The position numbers and the translations under genes are program-made. The notes below the pieces were generated by a model. It had not been told where the DNA came from and searched no databases. It worked only from the letters and a program-made list of their open reading frames with translations. Shown piece by piece: positions 4,923 through 17,384 of a stretch of DNA of 20,000 nucleotides. Each line of letters opens with the position of its first letter. Position 1 is the first letter of the stretch. The stretch spans positions 114,746 through 134,745 of the forward strand of contig PEAD01000004.1 of the NCBI GenBank assembly GCA_002753335.1. Direction: 5' to 3'. The DNA comes from Nitrospirae bacterium MYbin3 (lineage in GTDB: Bacteria > Nitrospirota > Thermodesulfovibrionia > Thermodesulfovibrionales > Dissulfurispiraceae).

Positions 4923-5165
4923 AGAGGTGTCCGGGTTTGTTTGGATACTTTGAAACGATTTTTAAGTGGTAAACTGCTCTGCCTCATGCCGCTACCTCTA
5001 TCTTCGGTAGTGTAGTCCAGTAAATCTCATTCGGCGTTCTGCCGTCAAGTCCTTGATGCCGTCGCCGACTGTTGTAAAACTCAAAATAAGTTGCAAGCCC
5101 AATTCTGGCCTCTGATATAGAAACATAAGCCTTTAGATAAATATCTTCGTACTTCACACTACGCG
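4923..5165 (-). pseudogene. IS3-family transposase C-terminal fragment plus probable right terminal repeat
   Basis: RSVKYEDIYLKAY...EARIGLATYFEFYNSRRRHQGLDGRTPNEIY is the IS3 OrfB C-terminal signature (stop at 4984). There is no DDE core upstream. The sequence 4923-4949 (AGAGGTGTCCGGGTTTGTTTGGATAC) resembles an IS3-type end. Confidence 0.8.
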
Positions 5166-5169
5166 AAGT

Positions 5170-6005
5170 AACAGAAAGTCTCTCGACCGCGCTGAACTTA
5201 GTGTTGATCATTTAAAACTATGCTTTGCGGGATGGCGACAAATGAAATAACAACAAATAATATTAACAAATACATCGACAACAGGCAGAAAAATGGGGCA
5301 AATGCCACAATAAACCGTGAACTTGCTGCACTCAAAAGGATGTTTTCTATAGGTTTTAACCAGACACCACACAAAATAATACGAATTCCTTCTTTAACTG
5401 AACACAATGTTCGCACAGGCTATTTTGAGCATCATGAATATCTTAAAATGTGTGATGTTTTGCCTAGCCATATTAAACCGGTATTTATTATGGGTTATCG
5501 CACAGGTATGAGGATTTCAGAAATTCTTTCTCTTAATTGGGAAACAGTAAATATATTTGATCGGAGGATAACGTTGGTGAATACAAAAAATAATGAGCCA
5601 CGGATTATACCTCTTGTTGGGGAATTGTTTGATACGATTCTGAAGCAGAAGGTTCTCTGTGATAGTAGTTATTCAAAATTTCCATATGTTTTTTCCAGAA
5701 ATCGAAAGCAGATTAAAGATTTCCGAGGGGTTTGGAACGCTGCATTTGAGAAAGCCGCGATAGAGCGCAAATTGTTTCATGACTTGAGGAGGACTGCTGT
5801 TAGAAATATGGTAAGGGCTGGGGTTGCTGAGAAGGTGTCAATGCAAATCTCAGGACACAAAACCCGTGATGTTTTTGAGCGATACCATATTGTAAACGAA
5901 GATGATTTGAAGCTTGCTTTTCAAAAAGTTGACAGCATGCATGCTGAAACTGAAAAAGCTGTTGAGAAAGAAAACAGCGGGCACAAAACAGGCACAATCG
6001 GATAA
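5170..6005 (+). pseudogene. Tyrosine recombinase/phage-type integrase, N-terminally truncated, with probable frameshift near 5224-5226
   Basis: Catalytic residues are present: TGMRISE (R), TKNNE (K), FHDLRR (HxxR), SGHKT (H), FERY (Y); also ATINREL. Integrase-like NRKSLDRAELSVDHLKLCF is encoded in another frame at 5170-5226, upstream of the 5220 ORF. The arm-binding N-terminal domain is absent. Confidence 0.85.
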
Positions 6006-6055
6006 AGGAGGAAATTTATGAAAAAAACAAAACAAGCCAAGTCTCTGTTTTTCAA

Positions 6056-6142
6056 TGGTGCCGGTGGGGAGGGTCGAACTCCCACGAGGTTGCCCTCACC
6101 GGATTTTGAGTCCGGCGCGTCTGCCAGTTCCACCACACCGGC
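6056..6142 (-). tRNA. tRNA-Leu(CAA)
   Basis: Minus strand GCCGGTG...CACCGGC-A-CCA acceptor stem, anticodon arm CCGGA-CT-CAA-AA-TCCGG, long variable arm, T arm GGGAG-TTCGACC-CTCCC. CCA is encoded. Confidence 0.97.
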
Positions 6143-6292
6143 TGTGGAAATTATCTTAGAGCATCAACGAGTTGCAGAATATTGTAGCCTATCACAAAGT
6201 ATTCGTTAGTGTCAAAACTAGCGGTATGCTTTAATCTCTGACAATGCTTATTAATCAAAAACGTACTTGACAAGAATCAAAAACTTACTTGC

Positions 6293-6321
6293 TTGACAAG
6301 AAAATAATTTTGTTTTATCGT
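6293..6321 (+). promoter_or_regulatory. Sigma70-type promoter for the yeiH-rhodanese unit
   Basis: TTGACA (6293-6298), 17-bp spacer, TATCGT (6316-6321). Confidence 0.65.
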
Positions 6322-6409
6322 TTTAGTCAAAGGGGGTTAGCTGTAACGTTTAATAATTTTTACACATCCATTAAAGCTGGAAAAAAATACTATTGCGGAG
6401 GTGTTTTAT

Positions 6410-7942
6410 ATGGCCCCAAAAGGAAGTAGCCTGTCGGATTTGTGGAAAAATGAGGACTGGCTTGCTGTCTGGATAGGTTTTTTCATAATCGCTATGGTAC
6501 TCATTTTTAACCAGTGGAGCATAATAGACTTAAAAAAGGTGTCGCCCGGGCACAAATGGGCAACTGATGGTCAGATAGCCTCGCGTGTTGAAAAATGGAA
6601 TGCCGCTATAGACCCTCTAATGAAAGATGCCGAGGCAAAAGGTGAACAGGGAGCTGTGGTGCGCTTGCAGGGCTTGAAAGAGACATTGCAGAAAGGCGAT
6701 AGGAAATCGATTGCTGAAGCTGCAGGCAGAGTTGAGCGTATGGGCGGATTGGTTGGTGAGCTTGGCAAGGAGGTTGGTGCACACGCAAAGGCAGAGCCGG
6801 CTAAGCTATTTACTGCTGACAATCTAACAAGAGGTTTTAAAATATGCGTGGCTTTTATGATTATAGCTACGATTGGCCTCAAGATGATGGGTAGTGTGAA
6901 CCTAGGCAAGTTTGTTTTAGGTTTCCCAATTGTATTTATTCTTGCATGGCTTGCCCGTTTAATTGCAGGCAATGCAGCTCCGGGTGATTGGGGCATAGAA
7001 TATGTGGTATTTTCACTTGCAATAGGCCTGATACTCAGCAATCTCATAGGGCTTCCAGCATGGCTTATGGAGGCTGTGAGAACCGAATATTACATCAAAT
7101 CAGGGCTTGTTATTCTTGGCGCCGGGCTTCTTTTTTTCGAGATATTGCAGGCTGGCGCGCTTGGTATAATGCAGGCCATAGGTGTAGTTTTTGTGGTGTG
7201 GTATGCCTGTTATTGGCTTGCAAAGAAGCTTAAGGTTGATGATGAATTTGCGGTTATGCTGTCAAGCGCAGTGTCGATATGCGGAGTTTCAGCCGCAATC
7301 GCAACATGCGGAGCAATTGAGGGCGACAAGAAAAAACTGTCTTATGTTACTTCACTCGTTCTGATAGTGGCTGTGCCTATGATGGTGATAATGCCTTGGG
7401 CTGTAAAGGCCTTTGGAATTCCGGATATAGTCGGCGGGGCATGGCTGGGCGGCACGCTCGATACGAGCGGTTCTGTTGTTGCTGCAGGCGCGCTGATAAG
7501 CGAGGCTGCGATGAAAACAGGGGTTATCGTTAAGTTTTCGCAAAATGCGCTCATCGGTGTTGCTGCATTTATACTTTCGATATGGTGGACATGCAAAAAA
7601 GGAGCTGAATGCGGCGAAAAGCCTACTGCTCGTATAATATGGGATCGTTTCCCCAAATTCGTGCTTGGCTTTATAGTCGCTTCGGTCTTTTTCTCTTTCT
7701 TTCTGCATATAGATACGGTAAACGCCACTAAAAGTCTTCTCGGAGACTTAAGGACATGGTGGTTCGCACTTGCTTTCGTATCTATCGGCCTCGAAACGCG
7801 CTTTGTAGATATAGCTAAGATGGAGGGCGGCAGGCCCGCACTGGCCTTTATTGCTGCGCAGACGTTTAATGTTATATGGACTCTGATTTTAGCGTACATA
7901 CTGTTTGGAGGGTATATATTCCCGGTGCCTGATATAAAATAA
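6410..7942 (+). CDS. yeiH: YeiH/PSE-family (putative sulfate exporter) membrane transporter, long form
   Basis: SD GGAGGTG at 6397-6403 favours ATG 6410 over GTG 6401. Motifs EDWLAVWIG, EYYIKSGLVILGA, SICGVSAAIA, GAWLGGTLDTSGSVVAAG, VKFSQN, RFPKFVLGF and LAFVSIGLET, with many transmembrane segments. Confidence 0.88.
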   Translation: MAPKGSSLSDLWKNEDWLAVWIGFFIIAMVLIFNQWSIIDLKKVSPGHKWATDGQIASRVEKWNAAIDPLMKDAEAKGEQGAVVRLQGLKETLQKGDRKSIAEAAGRVERMGGLVGELGKEVGAHAKAEPAKLFTADNLTRGFKICVAFMIIATIGLKMMGSVNLGKFVLGFPIVFILAWLARLIAGNAAPGDWGIEYVVFSLAIGLILSNLIGLPAWLMEAVRTEYYIKSGLVILGAGLLFFEILQAGALGIMQAIGVVFVVWYACYWLAKKLKVDDEFAVMLSSAVSICGVSAAIATCGAIEGDKKKLSYVTSLVLIVAVPMMVIMPWAVKAFGIPDIVGGAWLGGTLDTSGSVVAAGALISEAAMKTGVIVKFSQNALIGVAAFILSIWWTCKKGAECGEKPTARIIWDRFPKFVLGFIVASVFFSFFLHIDTVNATKSLLGDLRTWWFALAFVSIGLETRFVDIAKMEGGRPALAFIAAQTFNVIWTLILAYILFGGYIFPVPDIK

Positions 7943-7994
7943 CAGGACCCCGGCAGAAAAAAATAAATACTATCTGGAAGGAGGTGAACTATCG

Positions 7995-8495
7995 ATGAGT
8001 AAACGTTTAATCGCTTTTGTTGTGGTTGTTTTCTTCATCGCAAGCGGCAGTATAGTTTTGGCTCAACAGTACTCTGCCAATGCTATGAAAAAAATCGAAG
8101 AGCTTAAGATTATGAGCAGAGATAAAAAAGATATGCCCGAGAGCATGCCTGGAGTCAAAAAGATCACTGCTGAAGAGCTAAAGAAATGGCTAGAAACAAA
8201 CAAGAAGTTTGTGTTTCTCGACAACAGAGTGCCTGCTGATTTTGAAAAGGAACGGATTGCTAAGGCTGTTCGGCTTTCTCCGGATGACCTGCTTGAAAAA
8301 GGGCCTAAAGCAGCAGAACAACTCGGGCTTAAAAAAGACGATACGATTGTCTTTTACTGAAACGGCATTAAATGCTGGAGGTCTTCCGGCGCAATAATTC
8401 TGCTTCAGGATCTTGGGTATAAAAACATTTACTGGTATCGCGAAGGTATTCCGGATTGGATAAAGAAAGGCTATCCGACTACCGAGGGCAAATAA
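7995..8495 (+). CDS. Exported single-domain rhodanese/sulfurtransferase, predicted selenoprotein (Sec at TGA 8358-8360; 166 aa with readthrough)
   Basis: SD GGAGGTGA and signal peptide MSKRLIAFVVVVFFIASGSIVLA. Rhodanese N-half (ITAEELKKWL..FLDNR..DFEKERIAKA). After TGA the same frame continues NGIKCWRSSGAIILLQDLGYKNIYWYREGIPDWIKKGYP to TAA 8493-8495, completing the fold. The TGA sits at the catalytic Cys position (IVFY-U-NG). Confidence 0.88.
8373..8391 (+). promoter_or_regulatory. Putative bacterial SECIS element
   Basis: Stem GCUGGA (8374-8379) / UCCGGC (8385-8390), with one U-G wobble, and apical loop GGUCU (8380-8384) starting 20 nt after the UGA. Confidence 0.75.
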
Positions 8496-8511
8496 GCAGC
8501 AATCGGAATCG

Positions 8512-8562
8512 CATAAGAGGGGTATGTCTTACACACATACCCCTCTTATGTATCTATTTTTT
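8512..8562 (+). terminator. Intrinsic terminator after the rhodanese gene
   Basis: 16-bp perfect stem CATAAGAGGGGTATGT (8512-8527) / ACATACCCCTCTTATG (8535-8550), 7-nt loop, then TATCTATTTTTT. Confidence 0.8.
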
Positions 8563-8622: not shown

Positions 8623-9366
8623 ATGGATTTAGGAATACTCGGCACTATAACTCTTGACTGGAATTTTGCATCGGCATTATTCAGCATAATTATTATAGAC
8701 CTGATTCTTGCAGGCGATAATGCTGTTGTAATCGCTATGGCGGTGCGCTCTCTGCCCCATGAACAGCGAAAGAAAGGCATACTTTTTGGTGCCGGAGCCG
8801 CGGTGTTGTTGAGAGTTATTCTGACCTTTTTTGTTGCTCAATTGCTTCAGGTAAGCTTTATCAAGCTTGTCGGAGGCATTTTGATAACATGGATCGCGGT
8901 GAAACTTTTTATGGAAGGCGTGCCGGATGAGAGTATTGACAAAGAAGCCACAACCATCGGGCAGGCTATTAAGCTGATTGTTATCGCGGATATAACGATG
9001 GCTACAGACAACATGCTTGCTGTGGGCGGGGCTTCGCAAGGCAACCTTTTTCTTTTGTTGTTTGGACTAGGGCTCAGCATTCCGTTTGTCGTATTCACAA
9101 GCAACCTGCTTTCTATGCTTATGGATAAATATCCGGCGATAATATATATAGGCGCTGCAATTCTCGGTAAGGTGGGCGGAGAGATGATAATTACGGACCC
9201 TTTTACCGAAAGACTGCTGGCTCCGGGCAAGGCTACTATTTATATGGTTGAAGCTGTTTTTGCAGCAGGAGTTATCGTTACCGGAAAACTTTTGCTTAAG
9301 TGGAAAATTGTAAGGGCTGCGAAAAAAGAACATATCCATGATGCTGATAAGCCGGAGGAGGATTAA
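8623..9366 (+). CDS. terC: TerC-family (YjbE-like) integral membrane protein
   Basis: IIIIDLILAGDNAVVIAMA, GAGAAVLLR, IVIADITMATDNMLAVGGA and FGLGLSIP are TerC signature motifs. Confidence 0.9.
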   Translation: MDLGILGTITLDWNFASALFSIIIIDLILAGDNAVVIAMAVRSLPHEQRKKGILFGAGAAVLLRVILTFFVAQLLQVSFIKLVGGILITWIAVKLFMEGVPDESIDKEATTIGQAIKLIVIADITMATDNMLAVGGASQGNLFLLLFGLGLSIPFVVFTSNLLSMLMDKYPAIIYIGAAILGKVGGEMIITDPFTERLLAPGKATIYMVEAVFAAGVIVTGKLLLKWKIVRAAKKEHIHDADKPEED

Positions 9367-10169
9367 TGGCTATTTTAACCATATCGAGAGAGATCGGAAG
9401 CGGCGGGCGTGAAATAGGATATAAAATTGCCGACCTCATGGGATACGAGCTTATAACCAAAGAAAGGCTTCTTTCAGATATTAAAGAGTGGGGCGCTAAA
9501 TGGGAAAACTGGGGAAAGATTCTGGATGAGCACCATCCCACAGTATGGGAAAAATACGACTGGTCTTTTAAAGGTTTTTGTGCACTTATGCAAAACCAGA
9601 TGCTGCAATACGCATTAAAAGACAAAGTTGTCTTGTTGGGAAGAGGCGGCAACTTTCTGTTTAACGACATACCTTATGCTCTCAGAATACGCATAATTGC
9701 GCCTGTAAAATATCGAGCAGAAAGAATAATGAAGCGTGATTCTGTTGATATAGAGACGGCCCGATGGATTATAGAAAAAACCGACAAGGAAAGGTCGGGG
9801 TTTATCAGAGCCCTTTACGGAGAAGATTTGAATGCTCTGTCCGAATATGATATTACATTCGATACAAGCACGCGTCCGCTTGAAGGGATAATAGCTTCGG
9901 TTAAAGCTGCGCTAGCAGACAAAGAAAGGTTTAATACACCTAATAACTGTGAAAAACTGCGCCTGCACGCACTCGCTGCAAAGATAAAGGCGGTGATACT
10001 TACGGATCCGACATTCTTTATTCCCACGCTTGATATTGACGATGACGGAGAAGGCTTGATTCTTAAGGGCGTGATACACAATCCGAAAGAACACAAGCGC
10101 ATCGAAGATACTGTGCAAAAACTGGCCGGAGATACAAAGGTTAGGTGCAAACTCCATTACAGGAGTTAA
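9366..10169 (+). CDS. Cytidylate-kinase-like family protein with C-terminal BON-like domain
   Basis: ILTISREIGSGGREIG, VLLGRGG, LRIRIIAP, DKERSGF and YDITFDT match the Cytidylate_kin2-type family. The C-terminal ~70 aa (LAAKIKAVIL...LILKGVI...LAGDTKVRCKL) resembles BON. Start overlaps the terC stop (TAATG). Confidence 0.75.
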   Translation: MAILTISREIGSGGREIGYKIADLMGYELITKERLLSDIKEWGAKWENWGKILDEHHPTVWEKYDWSFKGFCALMQNQMLQYALKDKVVLLGRGGNFLFNDIPYALRIRIIAPVKYRAERIMKRDSVDIETARWIIEKTDKERSGFIRALYGEDLNALSEYDITFDTSTRPLEGIIASVKAALADKERFNTPNNCEKLRLHALAAKIKAVILTDPTFFIPTLDIDDDGEGLILKGVIHNPKEHKRIEDTVQKLAGDTKVRCKLHYRS

Positions 10170-10173
10170 GTTT

Positions 10174-10689
10174 TTATCCGTTTTTTTCGATTGCGCGCAG
10201 TATCCCATTCAATATGGCTGCAGGATTGGGCGGACAGCCTGAAATGAAAACATCAACAGGAATTACCCTATCTACTCCCCCGAGGGAAGCATAGCTTTCT
10301 CCAAAGATGCCGCCGTTGCAGCCGCAATCGCCAACAGCCACCACAAGCTTGGGGGCTGGGGTTGCATTGTAAGTCCTCTTTAACGCTACCTCCATATTTC
10401 TTGATACCGGGCCGGTTACAAGAAGCATATCAGCAAAGCGGGGCGATGCGGTGAATTGAACGCCGAAGCGCTCGCAATCATATATAGGGTTGTTTATCGC
10501 ATGTATTTCAAGTTCACAGCCATTGCAGGAGCCTGCATCCACTTCCCTAATGGTAAGGCTCCCGCGAAAATATTTCTTTACAGCTTCTTCCAGTTTTGCG
10601 CCGACAACTGTTATTTCATCTTTAACCACCTTAGGCAGCGGCTCAGTAACAATGCCGGTTCTGAATATCTGATGCAATATTCTCATCAT
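10174..10689 (-). CDS. hyfI: Ehr/hydrogenase-4-like small Fe-S subunit (NuoB/HycG/HyfI family)
   Basis: DAGSCNGCELE, ASPRFADMLLVTG, AVGDCG and GCPP supply four Cys ligands for one [4Fe-4S] cluster. Confidence 0.9.
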   Translation of the reverse strand: MMRILHQIFRTGIVTEPLPKVVKDEITVVGAKLEEAVKKYFRGSLTIREVDAGSCNGCELEIHAINNPIYDCERFGVQFTASPRFADMLLVTGPVSRNMEVALKRTYNATPAPKLVVAVGDCGCNGGIFGESYASLGGVDRVIPVDVFISGCPPNPAAILNGILRAIEKNG

Positions 10690-12251
10690 AGGTCATGCCC
10701 CGAATACGATTGATTGAAACTTTTGTTGCACAACGGGAAGTCGGGGACAATGTTTCCGGGAATCGCCTGTTCGAGTCCCAACCAATTAAGGCTGGAGGGG
10801 TCTCGAACCATGCAGCGGTTTATTTCGCCTTTAATGCCGGCCTGAACCCAATAGATAATTTCGCCTCGCCAACCTTCAACTGCAGCAAACCCGGAGGTGT
10901 CGGAAGCTGGGCGGCCAATAGCAATAGAAATTTCTCCTTCAGGGATATTTTCAAGGATAAAGCGGATAATACGAATCGACTCTCTTATCTCTTCCACCCT
11001 AACCCATGCACGCGCATGCACGTCTCCTGAAATAAGCACAGGCACTTTTATCTCAAAACGGTCATACGGAGGGAATGGATTCTGGAGCCTGCAGTCAAGG
11101 TTTAATCCGCTTGCACGGGCGACTATGCCCACAGCACATAGACTCCTCGCTTTTTCAGGACTAAGCTCACCCGCATCCCTTACCCTATCTTCTAGCGATG
11201 CGCTTTCATCATAAATAGTTGCGAGTTTTTCAAATTCGGCGGATAGAATATCAAGCTCTGCTTTTATTTCTTCTTTGCCTTTTTCGTCTATATCAACAGT
11301 TACTCCGCCAGGAAGCACTCTGTCCATAATGAACCTATGTCCAAAAAGCTTTAGGTTTGTGCGAACGAGCATCTCCTTAAGTCTTGTTGTCTGATAGAGC
11401 ATGAATGCAAAGGCCACATCGTTGCAGATTGCGCCTATGTCGCCAAGATGGTTTGCTATGCGCTCTCTTTCAAGGAACAAAGCTCTTAGCCAGTGCGCGC
11501 GCTCAGTAATGACAGCTTGGGTTACAGATTCGACCGCCAGAGAATACGCTATGCTGTGGGCTACGGTGGTATCTCCCGAAACCCGCCCTGCAAGCTTTGC
11601 GCCTTCTTGCCACGAGAGGGATTCAAAGCGCTTTTCTATTCCTTTGTGCACATATCCAAGGCGTTCTTCAAGATTTATTATCATTTCTCCAACAGCCTGA
11701 AAACGGAAATGTCCGGGCTCGATTATTCCTGCATGGACAGGCCCTACCGGTATCTCGTAAACCCCCTCGCCTTCAGCCTTTATCCATTTATACTTTCCAT
11801 TTACATGCGGCAAAGGTTTAGAGGAGGCAAAACTTTTTCTCAAAGGCCATGAGTCTTCGGGCCAATCTTCAAATTTTATCCACGGCCTCAAGTCTGGGTG
11901 TCCTTCAGGAACGAGCCCCATTAAACTATGTATCTGTCGTTCAAAGCGATAAGCGGGTACGAATTTTTTTGTGAGACTCGGAAAGGTCGGATCGTCAATC
12001 GGAATCTCGGTCCTTACAATCAGGTATTCGTTCGCAAAGCGATAGCAGGCATACACCGCAAACCCTCCTCCGAACGGTGTTTCGTCAACAGCCCATTCTG
12101 CGGCAAGCAGTGCATAAGCTTTTTTCATAATTTTTGCCGCGTCAGCAAATCTGTTTCTCGGCACGGTGCAAGAAACCACCGAAGCCGGAAACTGCCGTTT
12201 GTTGTAAGTCGCCGACGTGCCTAAAACATTGTCTATAGCCTCTTTGAGCAT
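10686..12251 (-). CDS. hyfG: Ehr/hydrogenase-4-like large subunit (NuoC+NuoD/HycE/HyfG family) lacking Ni-binding Cys motifs
   Basis: FERQIHSLMG..GHPD, PVGPVHAGIIEPGHFRF, LGYVHKGIEK, ERERIANHLGD, VEGWRGE and RDPS. The L1 motif reads RVSGDTTVAH and the C-terminus reads DFPLCNKSFNQSYSGHDL. Confidence 0.9.
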   Translation of the reverse strand: MLKEAIDNVLGTSATYNKRQFPASVVSCTVPRNRFADAAKIMKKAYALLAAEWAVDETPFGGGFAVYACYRFANEYLIVRTEIPIDDPTFPSLTKKFVPAYRFERQIHSLMGLVPEGHPDLRPWIKFEDWPEDSWPLRKSFASSKPLPHVNGKYKWIKAEGEGVYEIPVGPVHAGIIEPGHFRFQAVGEMIINLEERLGYVHKGIEKRFESLSWQEGAKLAGRVSGDTTVAHSIAYSLAVESVTQAVITERAHWLRALFLERERIANHLGDIGAICNDVAFAFMLYQTTRLKEMLVRTNLKLFGHRFIMDRVLPGGVTVDIDEKGKEEIKAELDILSAEFEKLATIYDESASLEDRVRDAGELSPEKARSLCAVGIVARASGLNLDCRLQNPFPPYDRFEIKVPVLISGDVHARAWVRVEEIRESIRIIRFILENIPEGEISIAIGRPASDTSGFAAVEGWRGEIIYWVQAGIKGEINRCMVRDPSSLNWLGLEQAIPGNIVPDFPLCNKSFNQSYSGHDL

Positions 12252-12253
12252 CT

Positions 12254-13714
12254 CTATTTAATCAACTCCGCTGCGGTGATAAACCACTTGCTTAAAAAAT
12301 CGGGCAGATAAATCCCGATTGCGAGCACTATCGCCATATGAAGCATAACCGGAACATGAGCCGCTTTAAGCGGTTTCTGGTAGTCAGGAATCTCTCCCGA
12401 AACCATCGCCTGCACCTTTCTGAATATGGCCGCAAACGCCACTCCAAGCCCCAAGAGAAGAAAGGGTGTCATAAGGGGAGCGCTTTTCATTGTTGCTGTA
12501 AGAATAAGAAACTCGCTGGTAAAGACTCCGAAAGGAGGCATTCCGACAATAGCCATAGCGCCGAACATAAGCCCCCAGCCCACAAGGGGATTGCCTTTGA
12601 AAAGGCCTTTTATCCTGTCCATTTCCTGAGTGCGGTGCATTTGAGAGGCATGACCTACAGTAAAAAATATTGCAGACTTTGCAAGGCTGTGAACAAGCAT
12701 ATGCAGAAGGGCCCCGAAAGTTGCGACCGGCCCGCCGAGCCCGAAGGCGAAGGTTGCGATGCCCATATGCTCTATTGAAGAATATGAAAACATTCGTTTT
12801 ATGTCTTTCTGCCTAAGCAATGAAAAGGCTGCTACTAATATTGAAATTATTCCGAAGCCCATCATTATATTGCCTGCATGATGTGAATGTGTTGCGCCGT
12901 CAACAAGGACTTTGCATCTTACAAGGGCATAAAGCGCGATATTGAGCAGCAGGCCCGAAAGCACCGCCGATATTGGAGTAGGGCCTTCGCTGTGAGCGTC
13001 CGGCAGCCAGTTGTGGAGAGGCACAAGCCCCACCTTTGTACCGTAGCCCACCATCAAAAAGACAAATGCAAGCGAAAGTATTGTGGGTTCAAGTTTGTCG
13101 CTTACAAGGCTCAGATTTGTCCAGAGAAGGGCTTGCCCGCCTTCTCCTAAAACTCTTTCTGCCGCAAAATAAAGAAGCACCGTTCCAAAAAGCGCTTGCG
13201 CTATCCCGACGCCGCAGAGTATAAAATATTTCCAAGCAGCCTCGATTGCTGTGGGAGTTCTGTAAAGTGACACAAGAAGCACTGTGGATAAAGTTGCAAG
13301 CTCCATCGCAATCCATAATACGCCTATATTATTGGTCAGCAGGCAAAGAAGCATCGCAAAGATGAATAGCTGGAACATAGCGTGGTAGAAGCGCATGCCC
13401 CAATGTCCGACCCTTCCGTGCTCCCGCTCTCTCCGCATGTAAGGGCGGCTGAAGATCGCGGTGGTCATAGAAACAAAGGATGTTAGAACCGCGAGATAGA
13501 CGTTGAATGCATCAACAAAAAAGAAGTTTTCACCGGCCAACATAGAACCCTGCTCATATACCTCTAAGGCAAGACCGATGCCTGCCACAAAGGTTGCGGC
13601 AGAGCCGGTGATGTTGACTTCGGGCGCGAACCGCCTGTCTCCCACAAAGGCGAGGACAGCCGCAGCAAAAAGAGGCGTCCCTAGCAGGATAAGCAGTACA
13701 GCGCTGTTTTGCAT
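12254..13714 (-). CDS. hyfF: HyfF-like antiporter-type membrane subunit
   Basis: WIAMELATL, EAAWKYFILC, GYGTKVGLVPLHNWLPDAHSEGPTPISAVLSG and KRMFSYSSIEHMG. Confidence 0.9.
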   Translation of the reverse strand: MQNSAVLLILLGTPLFAAAVLAFVGDRRFAPEVNITGSAATFVAGIGLALEVYEQGSMLAGENFFFVDAFNVYLAVLTSFVSMTTAIFSRPYMRREREHGRVGHWGMRFYHAMFQLFIFAMLLCLLTNNIGVLWIAMELATLSTVLLVSLYRTPTAIEAAWKYFILCGVGIAQALFGTVLLYFAAERVLGEGGQALLWTNLSLVSDKLEPTILSLAFVFLMVGYGTKVGLVPLHNWLPDAHSEGPTPISAVLSGLLLNIALYALVRCKVLVDGATHSHHAGNIMMGFGIISILVAAFSLLRQKDIKRMFSYSSIEHMGIATFAFGLGGPVATFGALLHMLVHSLAKSAIFFTVGHASQMHRTQEMDRIKGLFKGNPLVGWGLMFGAMAIVGMPPFGVFTSEFLILTATMKSAPLMTPFLLLGLGVAFAAIFRKVQAMVSGEIPDYQKPLKAAHVPVMLHMAIVLAIGIYLPDFLSKWFITAAELIK

Positions 13715-13718
13715 TAGC

Positions 13719-14378
13719 TCAACTCTCCTCTTTCAGACGCGCCATTTGGTCTACATCGAGGCTGTCAAAGGTTGTGTGTATCTGAAAGAAAAACATGCCG
13801 AATATAAACGCGGCTATAAGCACATCAAGCGCAACACCTAGCTCAACAACGAGAGGCATGCCATATGTTGTACTTGTGGCAGCGAAGAAAAGGCCGTTTT
13901 CCATCGCAAGAAATCCTATTATTTGTGTAACAGCATGTCTGCGCGTAATCATCATCAAAAGGCCTATCATGACGGTAGCAAGAGCTATCGCAAGGGTCGA
14001 GCGTGTTATAAAAGTGGAGAGTTCTCTCACAGGAGCGGTAAGGTGATAAGAGAATATTACGAGGACGATGCCTATGAGCATTGTTGTAGGTATGTTGACA
14101 ACTGTTTCTACATCTTTGCGATGTTTTAAACGAGCAATAAGGACATGAAGTATATAGGGCAAAAGAATAACTTTTAGAGACAGGGTAAGTATTGACGATA
14201 TGTAAAGGTGGTGTCTGCCGGCCACATAACCAACAATTGCTGTGTTTATCGAAAGGAAAAGCCCCTGCCATGTAAAAAGGTGAATAAGGCTGCTTATCCT
14301 TTTTTGTGAGAGCATGCCAAAAGCTGTAAGAAGCACCAAGGCGGCAAGAAAGCTGTTTATCTGTGTTATGGTTTCCAT
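13719..14378 (-). CDS. hyfE: HyfE-like membrane subunit
   Basis: Hydrophobic 219-aa protein with QIIGFLAMENG and MPLVVELGVALD, located between hyfC and hyfF. Confidence 0.88.
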   Translation of the reverse strand: METITQINSFLAALVLLTAFGMLSQKRISSLIHLFTWQGLFLSINTAIVGYVAGRHHLYISSILTLSLKVILLPYILHVLIARLKHRKDVETVVNIPTTMLIGIVLVIFSYHLTAPVRELSTFITRSTLAIALATVMIGLLMMITRRHAVTQIIGFLAMENGLFFAATSTTYGMPLVVELGVALDVLIAAFIFGMFFFQIHTTFDSLDVDQMARLKEES

Positions 14379-14388
14379 ATTTATAAAA

Positions 14389-15330
14389 TCACTCCAGCAT
14401 AAAAAACGACAACATCCCCAACGTGGCCATTAAAAAAGCCGCCCCAAGAAATTCGGTAAGCCTGAACAGCCGCATCTTGGCAAAACCGGTCTCTATTAAA
14501 ACTATTACAATGCCCGAGAATCCGAGCTTGAGCAGTAAATAAATAAATGCGAGCGAAATACCTGCCGGGGTTGCATAAACAGCAATCCCCATCGGCGCAA
14601 ACAGGGCAACTCCCAATGAAATATAAAGAAATAATTTCATCATTCCGGCCCACTCTATAAGCGCCAAATGTCTTCCTGAGTATTCGAGAATCATCGCTTC
14701 ATGAACCATTGTAAGCTCGAGGTGCGTGGCTGGATTATCGACCGGCACCCTTCCTGTTTCGGCCAAGGTGATAAGGACAAAAGCGATGAAGGCAAAAACC
14801 AAAGAAGGCTTGATTACGCTTGCGGGGCTGTAAATGGTCTCGACGATTCTCGCAAGGGAGGTTGACCCGCAGGATAGTGATACCGTAAATATCGCCATGA
14901 GCATGGCAGGTTCGGCAATGGATGCGATCATCATCTCACGGCTTGAACCCATTCCGCCGAAGGCCGTGCCTATATCCATTCCCGCCAGAGCCGTGAAAAA
15001 ACGTGCGGTGGCGAATAATGCCACCAAAACTATTACATCCGCGGTAAGAGACAGCGGCAGGTCTGTGGACAAGATAGGAATAATAGCGCTGACCATCGCT
15101 CCTGTGCCGAACACCAAATATGGCATGAAACGGAATATCCAAGAGGCGTTTTCTGCCAAAATAATATCTTTCGAAAACAACTTCAGCAGATTTCTGTAGG
15201 GCTGCAATATGCTCGGAGACGAGCGCCCCTGAGACCAGCATTTCAGCATCTTGACCCATCCAGCAAAAATAGGGGCAAGCCCGATTACGAGCGTAATCTG
15301 TAATAGTTCTATAATAAATCCTGCCACCAT
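14389..15330 (-). CDS. hyfC: HyfC/HycD (NuoH-like) membrane subunit
   Basis: QGRSSPSILQPYRNLLKLFSK, GMDIGTAFGGMGSSRE and AETGRVPVDNPATHLELTMVHEAMILEYSG. The true start is probably ATG 15330, overlapping the hyfB stop (TGATG), rather than 15432. Confidence 0.88.
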   Translation of the reverse strand: MVAGFIIELLQITLVIGLAPIFAGWVKMLKCWSQGRSSPSILQPYRNLLKLFSKDIILAENASWIFRFMPYLVFGTGAMVSAIIPILSTDLPLSLTADVIVLVALFATARFFTALAGMDIGTAFGGMGSSREMMIASIAEPAMLMAIFTVSLSCGSTSLARIVETIYSPASVIKPSLVFAFIAFVLITLAETGRVPVDNPATHLELTMVHEAMILEYSGRHLALIEWAGMMKLFLYISLGVALFAPMGIAVYATPAGISLAFIYLLLKLGFSGIVIVLIETGFAKMRLFRLTEFLGAAFLMATLGMLSFFMLE

Positions 15331-17384
15331 CACCTCACGAAGAGCAAAAGAAATATGATAGTTATGAAAGAATATATGAGATAAGTATTTATGCGGCCTT
15401 GCTGCAATCTGCCAACCTTTCTCGAAATCCAAAAGCTTGTGCTCGCAATAGGCTTGTAAATCCAGTTCCAGAAGCGATCTCTTATCCTTAGAGAATAAAT
15501 CAATTTTTTCGGGAAGGCAGAATGGGCTTGTTGAGGAACGAGCCTGACTTCCTCTTTCAGGTTGAATATAAAGCCGAATATTCTCCGCAGCGGCATCGAA
15601 AAAGAGGTGGCGTTATACTGCATCCTGTTAGTAAGTTTTTCAAACCCGCAATCCCAAATAGGTCCTCGATGTATCTTGCCCGGGTTAACATGGAGGATTA
15701 TATAGACGATTGCATAAATCGCAATGGTGCCTAAAAAAACCACAAGCCCGGAATAAGATGCACGCTCAGGCGCTATAGGCGTGAGCCATATCCAGCCTAG
15801 CGCGTTGGCCGAAGTCGTGAGCTTTCCGCCTGTCAAATGCTCTGCTACAACATCCATACAGTTTATAAATACGGTAGGCAGTATGCCGAGAAGCAGACAT
15901 GAGAGTGCAGCCATTCCCATCCCGATACGCATAGACCAGCATACCTCATGAACTTGTGGCCGGTTATGGCCTCTCCATTGGCCGAGAAAAGTTACGCCAA
16001 AGGCCTTAACAAAGCAGGCAGCGGCCAAGGCCGCAGTCAGGGCAAGGAGTGCGGCACCCAAAGGCATAAGGAGCTTCATCATCGGACTTGGAAGTGATGG
16101 GGAAAGAAGAAACGCCTGAAAGGTCAGCCATTCAGAAACAAAACCGTTAAAGGGCGGCAGCGCAGAGATTGAAATACAGCCGACTAAAAAAAACACTGCG
16201 GTCCATGGCATTTTATGTATCAGGCCGCCCATTTCCTCCATGTTTCTTTCATGGGTGGCGTGGAGCACAGCGCCGGCCCCCATGAATAACAGGCCTTTAA
16301 AAAGGGCATGGTTCATAGCGTGATACAAAGCGGCGATAAGGGACAGTGCTGCCAAAATTTCCTGACCGAATGCCTTGAAAACCATAGTCATACCGATTCC
16401 AATCATTATAATGCCGATATTTTCGACCGACGAATACGCAAGAAGGCGCTTTATATCTTTCTCCATCATTGCATAGAGGATGCCTATCAAAGCAGATATG
16501 ATGCCAATTACAATTACAAGCGCGCCCCACCACCACGGAATGTTTTTTATAAGGTCAAAAGCAACTCTCAGTAGCCCGTATATTGCGGTCTTAAGCATAA
16601 CGCCGCTCATAAGCGCAGAGATATTGGATGGGGCAACAGGGTGTGCTTCCGGAAGCCAGACATGCAAGGGAACAATACCCGCCTTGGCCCCAAAGCCAAA
16701 GAAAGCGAGTAGAAAGGCAACTGTAGCCCATTCAGCCGGGAATTCAGCCTGACGCATCGCATCAAAGGTAAAGCCGCTGAAATCGTCAAATCCTGCTGCA
16801 AGGCCTGCCATAACACCGAATGCAAGAAGGATTGCCACCGCGCCAACATGCGCTACGACAATATAAAGGAATGCCGCGCGTCTGTTTTCAACTTGCTCAT
16901 CTTCAAACATGACAAGGAAATAGGATGCTGCCGCCATAGTCTCCCACGATATTAGAAAGAACAAGGCATCGTCCGCAAGCACCACCATAAACATTCCAGC
17001 GAGGAACAAGTTATAAAAAACACAAAGCCGAGCTACAGGTCTGCGTCCGAGAAATCCCTTTACATACCCTATCGAATATATCGAAACAAAGAAAGATAAA
17101 AGGCCTATGAGTACAAGAAAATATCCTGAGAGCGGGTCTAACCGCAAATGAAAAGGCAGGCCCGGCAGGCCGAGTTCCATGATCGCACTGCGTGCGGTGC
17201 CGAGGCTTACCGTCCATACACCGGCTGCTGTTGCTGCAAAAGAGGCTATCGCTGACAAGCAAAAACAGACTGTTGTCATCAGTTTTTCGTTTTTTATTAA
17301 TATGGATACTACGGCAGTCTGCGCTATCAACAGGATAACGGCAAAAGAGGCAAGACTTAATGGGGTCAAAGTCACCTGTGTCAT
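15330..17384 (-). CDS. hyfB: HyfB/HycC (NuoL/MrpA-like) antiporter-type membrane subunit
   Basis: FLISWETM, GFGAKAGIVPLHVWLPEAHPVAPSNISALMSGVMLK, KRLLAYSSVENIG, ALPPFNGFVSEW, WDCGF and RMQYNATSFS. Confidence 0.9.
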   Translation of the reverse strand: MTQVTLTPLSLASFAVILLIAQTAVVSILIKNEKLMTTVCFCLSAIASFAATAAGVWTVSLGTARSAIMELGLPGLPFHLRLDPLSGYFLVLIGLLSFFVSIYSIGYVKGFLGRRPVARLCVFYNLFLAGMFMVVLADDALFFLISWETMAAASYFLVMFEDEQVENRRAAFLYIVVAHVGAVAILLAFGVMAGLAAGFDDFSGFTFDAMRQAEFPAEWATVAFLLAFFGFGAKAGIVPLHVWLPEAHPVAPSNISALMSGVMLKTAIYGLLRVAFDLIKNIPWWWGALVIVIGIISALIGILYAMMEKDIKRLLAYSSVENIGIIMIGIGMTMVFKAFGQEILAALSLIAALYHAMNHALFKGLLFMGAGAVLHATHERNMEEMGGLIHKMPWTAVFFLVGCISISALPPFNGFVSEWLTFQAFLLSPSLPSPMMKLLMPLGAALLALTAALAAACFVKAFGVTFLGQWRGHNRPQVHEVCWSMRIGMGMAALSCLLLGILPTVFINCMDVVAEHLTGGKLTTSANALGWIWLTPIAPERASYSGLVVFLGTIAIYAIVYIILHVNPGKIHRGPIWDCGFEKLTNRMQYNATSFSMPLRRIFGFIFNLKEEVRLVPQQAHSAFPKKLIYSLRIRDRFWNWIYKPIASTSFWISRKVGRLQQGRINTYLIYSFITIIFLLLFVR

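Follow-up and report, generated by a model that had tools for sequence, protein, structure and literature searches.

What is the role of a locus in which a gene for a YeiH-type membrane carrier is followed by a gene for an exported rhodanese with an in-frame UGA codon at its active site? These two plus-strand genes lie at positions 6293-8562 of the window, i.e. the whole stretch of 20,000 nucleotides that was analysed. A preliminary description had proposed a sulfur or selenium oxyanion handling system, in which a YeiH exporter is coupled to an extracytoplasmic selenocysteine (Sec)-dependent sulfurtransferase or reductase. Our comparisons indicate that the locus is real and conserved, that its two genes of known families probably form an operon, and that the rhodanese likely serves to capture a reactive sulfur species outside the cell for transfer to a transporter or a sensor.

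The probable operon and its two products

The features of the locus are collected in Table 1. With regard to the promoter of the preliminary description, a match is present, but sites of this type are not in excess in the region, where a scan found 5 against 6.1 expected by chance. A further copy of CTTGACAAGAA can be read in the sequence 26 bp upstream of the promoter candidate, and the upstream regions of 13 loci showed, by eye, no motif in common. The hairpin-free spacer and the terminator, also described previously, were both recovered: the spacer shows no stable fold compared with shuffled sequences (z 0.32), and the terminator-like hairpin has a z of -7.56, with none of 200 shuffles being equally stable. 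A long hairpin also follows the rhodanese stop codon in most of 23 orthologous loci, as judged by eye. The only Rfam family found within the window is tRNA-Leu. The operon is located 5' of this tRNA and the integrase 3' of it, and membership of the operon in an integrase island was therefore rejected.

Table 1 Coordinates of the features of the yeiH-rhodanese locus in the window
Feature	Positions	Strand	Details
Sigma70-like promoter candidate	6293..6321	+	TTGACA-17-TATCGT, matches 10/12
Long-form YeiH/PSE-family secondary carrier, 510 aa	6410..7942	+	ATG 6410, TAA 7942; PF03601
Intergenic spacer, 52 bp	7943..7994	+	Strong Shine-Dalgarno GGAAGGAGGTGA, hairpin-free
Rhodanese-fold protein, exported, single-domain, 166 aa	7995..8495	+	Needs readthrough of TGA 8358-8360; PF00581
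UGA (Sec) codon and bacterial SECIS-like hairpin	8358..8407	+	Apical loop GGUCU, 19 nt past UGA
Intrinsic terminator-like hairpin, then T-rich tail	8511..8551	+	17 pairs (scan)

Under the standard code, the rhodanese reading frame stops at codon 122, and the full length is only obtained with TGA read as Sec; gene callers that halt at UGA truncate the protein right before its active site. The UGA aligns with a cysteine of the homologues, as in other selenoproteins, and selA, selB, selD and tRNA-Sec are all found in the host genome, which upholds the earlier reading of this codon. Bacterial SECIS elements consist of a hairpin immediately downstream of the UGA, in which a G occurs early in the apical loop. 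The hairpin of the single sequence does not exceed chance expectation (z -1.3 to -1.55), and the element is recognised by comparison of alleles: the apical hairpin occupies an identical position in 11 UGA alleles, and a G is present at base 24 in 11/11 UGA alleles versus 18/53 Cys alleles, a contrast inflated by the relatedness of the alleles. A pseudogene created by a nonsense mutation was rejected, since 12 UGA alleles share this one codon and the downstream frame and hairpin are conserved. Over all loci fetched, the 105 distinct motif contexts comprise 12 with Sec and 93 with Cys at the first position, and none with Sec at the second. The Sec alleles are dispersed among Cys alleles on the rhodanese tree, and Cys alleles also occur in selA-positive genomes; the Sec is thus real but exchangeable. 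On this allele distribution, the Sec is best described as an optional replacement of Cys, and not as a sign of selenium handling.

The rhodanese scores 62.2 bits with PF00581 (cut-off 22.2), and its N-terminus resembles a cleavable signal peptide by eye. Its structural model (pLDDT 87.5) matches single-domain rhodaneses, including Wolinella Sud, so that profile and model agree on a rhodanese fold with the catalytic Cys position, here occupied by Sec. The active site reads U122-N-G-I-K-C127-W-R-S, and the consensus of the orthologues is C-N-G-x-x-C-W-[RK]-S, with positions 122 (as Cys) and 127 invariant across 46 Cys orthologues. Classical sulfurtransferases of the GlpE/PspE type are defined by a six-residue active-site loop, which this rhodanese does not have: compared with the best solved homologue (6mxv), its loop is two residues longer and contains a second cysteine. 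The PspE models score 23.3 and 18.9 bits, against cut-offs of 102 and 126. As the loop is non-canonical, sulfurtransferase chemistry is not assured, and of the sulfurtransferase initially described, the fold stands but not the classical loop.

The carrier belongs to the PSE/YeiH family according to PF03601 (148.9 bits, cut-off 24.5, E 2e-43), as initially described, although the word exporter is just the name of the family; with 73.2 bits, it falls below the 232.6 cut-off of the TIGR00698 subfamily. No solved structure matches it by sequence, and Foldseek returned zero matches at E <= 0.001. Its model (pLDDT 86.6) aligns with KefC (8bxg; Z 14.8, rmsd 4.0, 255 aligned residues), AspT (Z 13.7) and NhaP (Z 13.6), with an rmsd of 4.0-4.4 across the carrier matches, and the core is accordingly predicted to adopt an NhaA-like (CPA/AT) antiporter-like fold. 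Carriers of this kind can run in either direction. The model contains an additional four-helix bundle between the first two membrane helices (residues 52-135), which probably faces outward. This bundle was rejected as a dedicated docking site for the rhodanese, as window-type YeiH proteins that have no rhodanese also contain it and the remaining partner types do not conserve it.

Conservation of the pair and change of carrier

The conservation of the pair was examined in a scan of species-representative genomes, in which the best 80 of 111 pattern matches were used as loci. Among these 80, the window rhodanese and 39 loci form one clade on the tree (support 88/82), in which yeiH lies at most 2.5 kb from the rhodanese gene in 35 of the 39 loci; at L030 and L036, where ORF labelling had missed it, yeiH was scored by tblastn. 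In the remaining four, a contig edge is reached 2-713 bp upstream. The pair is thus kept, as the preliminary description required. The nearest named relatives among the same best 80 are mostly Nitrospirota MAGs. When the host phylum was sampled evenly, own genome included, 28 matches were obtained from 26 of the 251 genomes, of which 20 adjoin yeiH, 7 lie immediately upstream of a chemoreceptor gene, and 1 is truncated. As a control, neither yeiH nor a chemoreceptor gene is found within approximately 1.5 kb of other rhodanese types in 18 loci, a set that excludes L020 and L286, where a protein of the present family type occurs with a receptor.

In 23 window-type loci, the order is yeiH followed by the rhodanese gene, with a spacer of 17-226 bp that mostly ends in a strong Shine-Dalgarno sequence. 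A search for longer proteins, a weak test with two found, revealed no YeiH-rhodanese fusion, and plasmids gave no match to one betaproteobacterial member. No MauE/DoxX-type recycling partner is present in the window, and one is present at 11 of the 23 orthologous loci; genes of this type also accompany unrelated rhodaneses. Some loci carry a universal stress protein (USP) gene between yeiH and the rhodanese gene, and tandem rhodanese, YeeE and sat genes also cluster in yeiH-rhodanese loci.

Seen from the carrier, the association is much looser. Only 9 of 74 metagenome loci with a window-type yeiH carry the rhodanese, or 9 of 60 after removal of 14 loci with less than 600 bp downstream; the carrier thus does not need the rhodanese, and the proposed survey of yeiH neighbourhoods shows the link to be one-sided. 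Identity is at least 73% in eight of the nine. The other window-type yeiH loci lie near dsrA or dsrAB (10/74), cytochrome bd, or TraB/radical-SAM genes, and two of the 74 directly precede sat-apr. In the one genome of the same genus that was searched, the window-type YeiH finds no match, the best being 39% identical over partial length.

The YeiH partners are of four types of 510, 530, 441 and 587 aa, the last three being approximately 21-27% identical to the window YeiH. A 100/100 branch of the YeiH tree splits the window type from the other three. In contrast, the rhodanese tree nests the window type with the 530- and 441-aa types, on inner branches of moderate support (88/80 and 88/82), and the rhodaneses of the 587-aa type lie far outside. 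As the YeiH partners straddle the 100/100 split and the window-type rhodaneses are nested within the partners of the distant YeiH lineage, the partner has changed and the pairing has persisted. This disagreement between the two trees suggests that the pairing has been under selection and is more than inherited gene order. An AU test also rejects window-type and 530-aa YeiH as one group (p 7.4e-5), but this group omitted the 600-aa type, which is the sister of the window type, and the 100/100 split is therefore the preferred evidence. Universal stress proteins, a sigma54 regulator and a histidine kinase with a Tll0287 domain are also encoded in the clusters of the 441- and 530-aa YeiH types.

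Chemoreceptor partners and sulfur metabolism of the carriers

We observed relatives of the rhodanese that are adjacent to chemoreceptors, fused to them (Sulfurimonas) or fused to binding proteins, and these are new. Among the best 80 of 111 matches, a sister clade comprises 16 loci; in 15 of them, the next gene downstream encodes a chemoreceptor, and the last is truncated. In addition, 7 further loci adjoin receptors, and 14 loci of Sulfurimonas and its kin show long frames of the fusion type. The fusions read, by eye, as signal peptide, rhodanese, membrane helix and normal receptor, and the single fusion scanned comprises a rhodanese, a four-helix sensor and signalling domains; the HHalign probability is 99.3 for one fusion. 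This layout would place the rhodanese next to the sensor domain. The aligned periplasmic domains of the receptor partners have no conserved cysteine, which suggests signalling by contact.

An independent betaproteobacterial sample gave 29 matches in 24 of 301 genomes. The single-domain copies precede yeiH (5) or four-helix-bundle receptors (8, of which one is cut by a contig end), and the remainder comprises one copy near a receptor, one with neither partner, and 14 proteins of approximately 400 aa; all ten of the latter that were tested carry a fused periplasmic binding domain of PF12974. The rhodanese family nearly always adjoins, or is fused to, one of two membrane partners. As the sister proteins serve chemoreceptors, the likely role of the rhodanese shifts toward that of a capture or binding protein.

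With regard to sulfur metabolism, dsrA is present in 19 of 24 rhodanese carriers versus 46 of 277 other genomes of one betaproteobacterial order, and in 26/26 carriers versus 114/225 non-carriers of the host phylum, counts that are inflated by kinship, so that p-values overstate the contrast. The expected correlation with dsr genes is thus found. In the six Sulfurimonas-family fusion genomes tested, dsrA is present in none and soxB in two. The host genome has dsrA, dsrB, sat and a 72-aa ORF of the size of DsrD, which, from its likeness, we take to be DsrD, and soxB was not found in it at 93.7% completeness. On the basis of dsrAB, the DsrD-sized ORF and the lack of a detectable soxB, the host looks like a sulfate reducer.

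Published data link the carrier family to sulfite. In Salmonella (bioRxiv 10.1101/2025.07.27.662810) and in Bordetella (PMC13689094), yeiH mutants are sulfite-sensitive according to the available parts of these sources, and sulfite is thus a probable YeiH substrate. These phenotypes fit export, with sulfite transport itself deduced from the phenotype. In Desulfovibrio vulgaris, disruption of the PSE gene DVU0543 aids growth in molybdate, and the authors assign no clear role to it in the text available (PMC10102598).

Proposed role and relation to known systems

We favour a model in which the two genes form one unit: on the outer side of the YeiH-type carrier, the Sec rhodanese would capture thiosulfate or sulfane sulfur, and the carrier would move sulfite inward; we give this model a probability of approximately 0.42. 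In this model, Sec122 would attack the sulfane sulfur of thiosulfate, reversibly yielding a bound Se-S adduct and free sulfite. Cys127 would then resolve the adduct, releasing sulfide and leaving an Se-S bond, which would be re-reduced by a membrane partner. Finally, the ion-coupled, NhaA-fold YeiH would bring the sulfite to the cytoplasmic DsrAB. In the relatives, the same captured state may be read by the helical sensor domain of the chemoreceptor. The thiosulfate/sulfite couple is the likely chemistry because of the rhodanese fold, the reactive Sec/Cys pair, the dsrA-rich hosts and the sulfite-linked carrier, and the inward direction is supported by the yeiH loci near dsrA/dsrAB or before sat-apr and by the effect of the loss of DVU0543. 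As one periplasmic protein occurs with both carriers and receptors, a capture protein is the simplest account. By extension, the members of the family as a whole could tentatively be regarded as periplasmic proteins that bind thiosulfate or sulfane sulfur covalently and are shared by YeiH carriers and helical-bundle chemoreceptors, a reading that we consider somewhat less probable than the model for the locus itself.

The same parts and chemistry could also run in the reverse direction, with YeiH exporting toxic sulfite and the sulfane-loaded rhodanese making thiosulfate in the periplasm; this is the reading nearest to the preliminary description. It accords with the sulfite-sensitive yeiH mutants and with the 526-fold induction of the Hyphomicrobium yeiH by thiosulfate, whose product is proposed to be a sulfite exporter in the available text of PMC11582611. 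Furthermore, all five genomes of the betaproteobacterial sample with the rhodanese-yeiH pair carry dsrA and soxB, as expected of oxidisers that produce sulfite internally. Nevertheless, in a host that looks like a reducer, sulfite is an electron acceptor, and a detoxifying enzyme leaves the fusions to chemoreceptors and binding proteins unexplained. We consider this reversed direction unlikely, if reasonable.

Slightly more doubtful is a low-turnover rhodanese whose Sec/Cys switch reports periplasmic sulfur species and either gates YeiH or signals through YeiH to a neighbouring kinase. The chemoreceptors served by the sister clades and the kinase, sigma54 regulator and universal stress proteins of the 441- and 530-aa YeiH clusters would suit such a switch, and SoxT1B is a precedent of a transporter acting in signalling (PMC11582611, available text). 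However, no kinase, regulator or USP gene adjoins the pair in the window, and all 12 Sec alleles fall in the yeiH-linked clade, with none among the receptor-linked copies, as would be expected if turnover were in demand alongside the transporter. It is improbable that the two genes merely share a promoter and a response to a sulfur signal while acting separately: the one-sided association, the USP gene between the pair in some loci and the other sulfur genes gathered there are compatible with this, but the family nearly always adjoins or is fused to one of two membrane partners, and the pairing outlasted a change of YeiH lineage. Finally, the selenium side of the preliminary description, i.e. 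uptake, reduction or export of selenite, is very improbable despite the active-site Sec and a neighbouring tandem rhodanese that is weakly ExtH-like (39.8 bits, cut-off 200), since the Sec is optional, Cys forms also occur in selA-carrying genomes, none of the recurrent annotated neighbours was recognised as a sel gene, and carriage follows dsrA; together with the sulfite phenotypes of yeiH mutants, the latter retains the sulfur side.

Inward transport of sulfite in a reducer host thus remains the favoured reading. The interest of the locus comes mainly from the use of one rhodanese family for both transport and chemotaxis. Both the passage of sulfite across the membrane in Dsr-using bacteria and the sensing behind thiosulfate and sulfur taxis are poorly defined, and a small soluble protein that occurs naturally in Cys and Sec forms offers a direct handle on both. 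An adduct of the rhodanese would reveal the ligand of both a carrier family and a group of orphan chemoreceptors. If the wider reading of the family is true, a covalent-binding front end would span sulfate reducers and sulfur oxidisers in at least four phyla.

No description of a rhodanese-YeiH unit or of a rhodanese-chemoreceptor link was found in the literature searched, mainly open-access main texts, and the available texts of PMC5840216, PMC12998232, PMC9751629 and PMC13510729 do not mention the yeiH-rhodanese pairing. The characterised YeiH/PSE carriers (PF03601, TC 2.A.98) comprise Salmonella YeiH, Bordetella BP2808, Paracoccus SuyZ and Hyphomicrobium Hden_0834. The window YeiH shares with them the PF03601 core and the predicted Na+/H+-antiporter-like fold, which is also stated for Salmonella YeiH in the part of the preprint available (bioRxiv 10.1101/2025.07.27.662810). 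In contrast, it has approximately 170 more N-terminal residues, which include the four-helix bundle, and lies below the TIGR00698 cut-off; compared with the known genes, as far as the available descriptions go, the window gene has no LysR regulator beside it and has an exported rhodanese as a partner. In D. vulgaris, DVU0539-DVU0545 encode a kinase, a regulator, a USP, the PSE carrier, a small membrane protein and a USP, and the layout of kinase, regulator, USP and PSE carrier recurs around the 441- and 530-aa YeiH partners. This cluster, in the available part of its description, has no rhodanese, whereas the window has no USP or kinase.

Rhodanese-like selenoproteins were catalogued as forms 1-5 in a 2026 review, none with the motif UxGxxC in the available text (PMC13188914), and those catalogued in PMC9312934, in the part available, also do not have it. 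UxGxxC would thus add a Sec motif to the five forms. As here, the catalogued proteins carry Sec at the catalytic position, and the spacing in TsoB (UxxxxU) is also of five residues. Forms 1, 2 and 4, which have PF00581 only, exhibit UxxS or UxxG as described there, from which the motif here differs. Unlike the Sec rhodaneses catalogued in NCBIfam, the window rhodanese is single-domain and not fused to DsbD, and it scores far below the cut-offs of TsoB NF045694 (65.8/805), NF041203 (51.4/115) and TIGR03865 (50.9/128), the last comprising PQQ-linked CXXCW proteins and being compared by score.

The exported single-domain rhodanese Sud of Wolinella succinogenes (1qxn) matches the fold with an E of 3e-6 at 17% identity. 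Sud is a periplasmic transferase of polysulfide sulfur that feeds a membrane molybdoenzyme. The partner of the window rhodanese, in contrast, is a carrier, replaced by a chemoreceptor in the relatives. MBP-Tar, TorT-TorS and the TRAP carriers are binding-protein-dependent systems, and the present family resembles them in that one periplasmic protein family occurs with both transporters and helical-bundle receptors. The difference lies in the protein itself: instead of the two-lobed solute-binding partner typical of TRAP systems, the partner here has a rhodanese fold with a reactive Cys/Sec pair, and the carrier has a predicted NhaA fold.

Surroundings of the carrier-rhodanese pair

The truncated integrase and the transposase-like fragment lying upstream of the pair (Table) are the remnant of an integrated element. 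Closer to the pair, the direct repeat that runs into the TTGACA of the promoter match could be a regulator site or a tandem promoter. With regard to the downstream side, a TerC gene follows in 8 of the 23 orthologous loci, and TerC is also found behind long YeiH genes that have no rhodanese. Beyond it, the translations of the minus-strand operon resemble a hydrogenase-4/Hyf-type membrane complex.

Table. Features of the window and of other loci
Feature	Location	Remarks
Tyrosine integrase (truncated) and transposase-like fragment	window 4984-6142	3' side of tRNA-Leu(CAA)
Direct repeat CTTGACAAGAA	window 6266-6302	two copies 26 bp apart; overlaps -35 candidate
YjbE/TerC-family gene and cytidylate-kinase-like/BON gene	window 8623-10169	behind terminator
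Hydrogenase-4/Hyf-like membrane complex operon (candidate)	window 10174-17384	minus strand; from look of translations
Rhodanese-chemoreceptor fusion	L093:6941-9154	Sulfurimonas-type; exported rhodanese N-terminal
PF12974 periplasmic binding domain fused to family rhodanese	L270, L273, L275-L278, L280, L284, L285, L287	Betaproteobacterial
YeeE/YedE (PF04143) transporter	L220:1501-2469 (MYbin3 contig C46)	two in-frame TGA codons
Two further rhodanese-like genes	L215 (C57), L217 (C12), MYbin3	in-frame TGA in CxxxxU-type loops

Neighbours of long YeiH genes and rhodanese fusions

Window-type long YeiH genes lacking the rhodanese lie near dsrAB (L174-L176, L178, L179, L181, L187, L191, L210, L211) or directly before sat-aprBA (L149, L202). 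In a betaproteobacteria-like branch, a TraB/PrgY/GumN-family gene is located downstream of long YeiH (L151-L154, L159, L160, L162, L034, L036), and it is often accompanied by a radical SAM/SPASM gene.

The L093 fusion is resembled by 13 loci (L086, L088, L094-L103, L108). In fusions of this type, an extra membrane helix would tether the exported rhodanese beside a four-helix sensor domain; they are candidate sulfur-compound chemoreceptors. In the Betaproteobacterial set, a small response-regulator gene lies downstream in L280-L282.

Other in-frame TGA genes of MYbin3

The rhodanese-like gene of L215 was found again in many relatives. Both TGA codons of the YeeE/YedE gene fall at GGC-type motifs, and this transporter is likely a double selenoprotein. 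YeeE/YedE selenoproteins have been catalogued before (PMC9312934).
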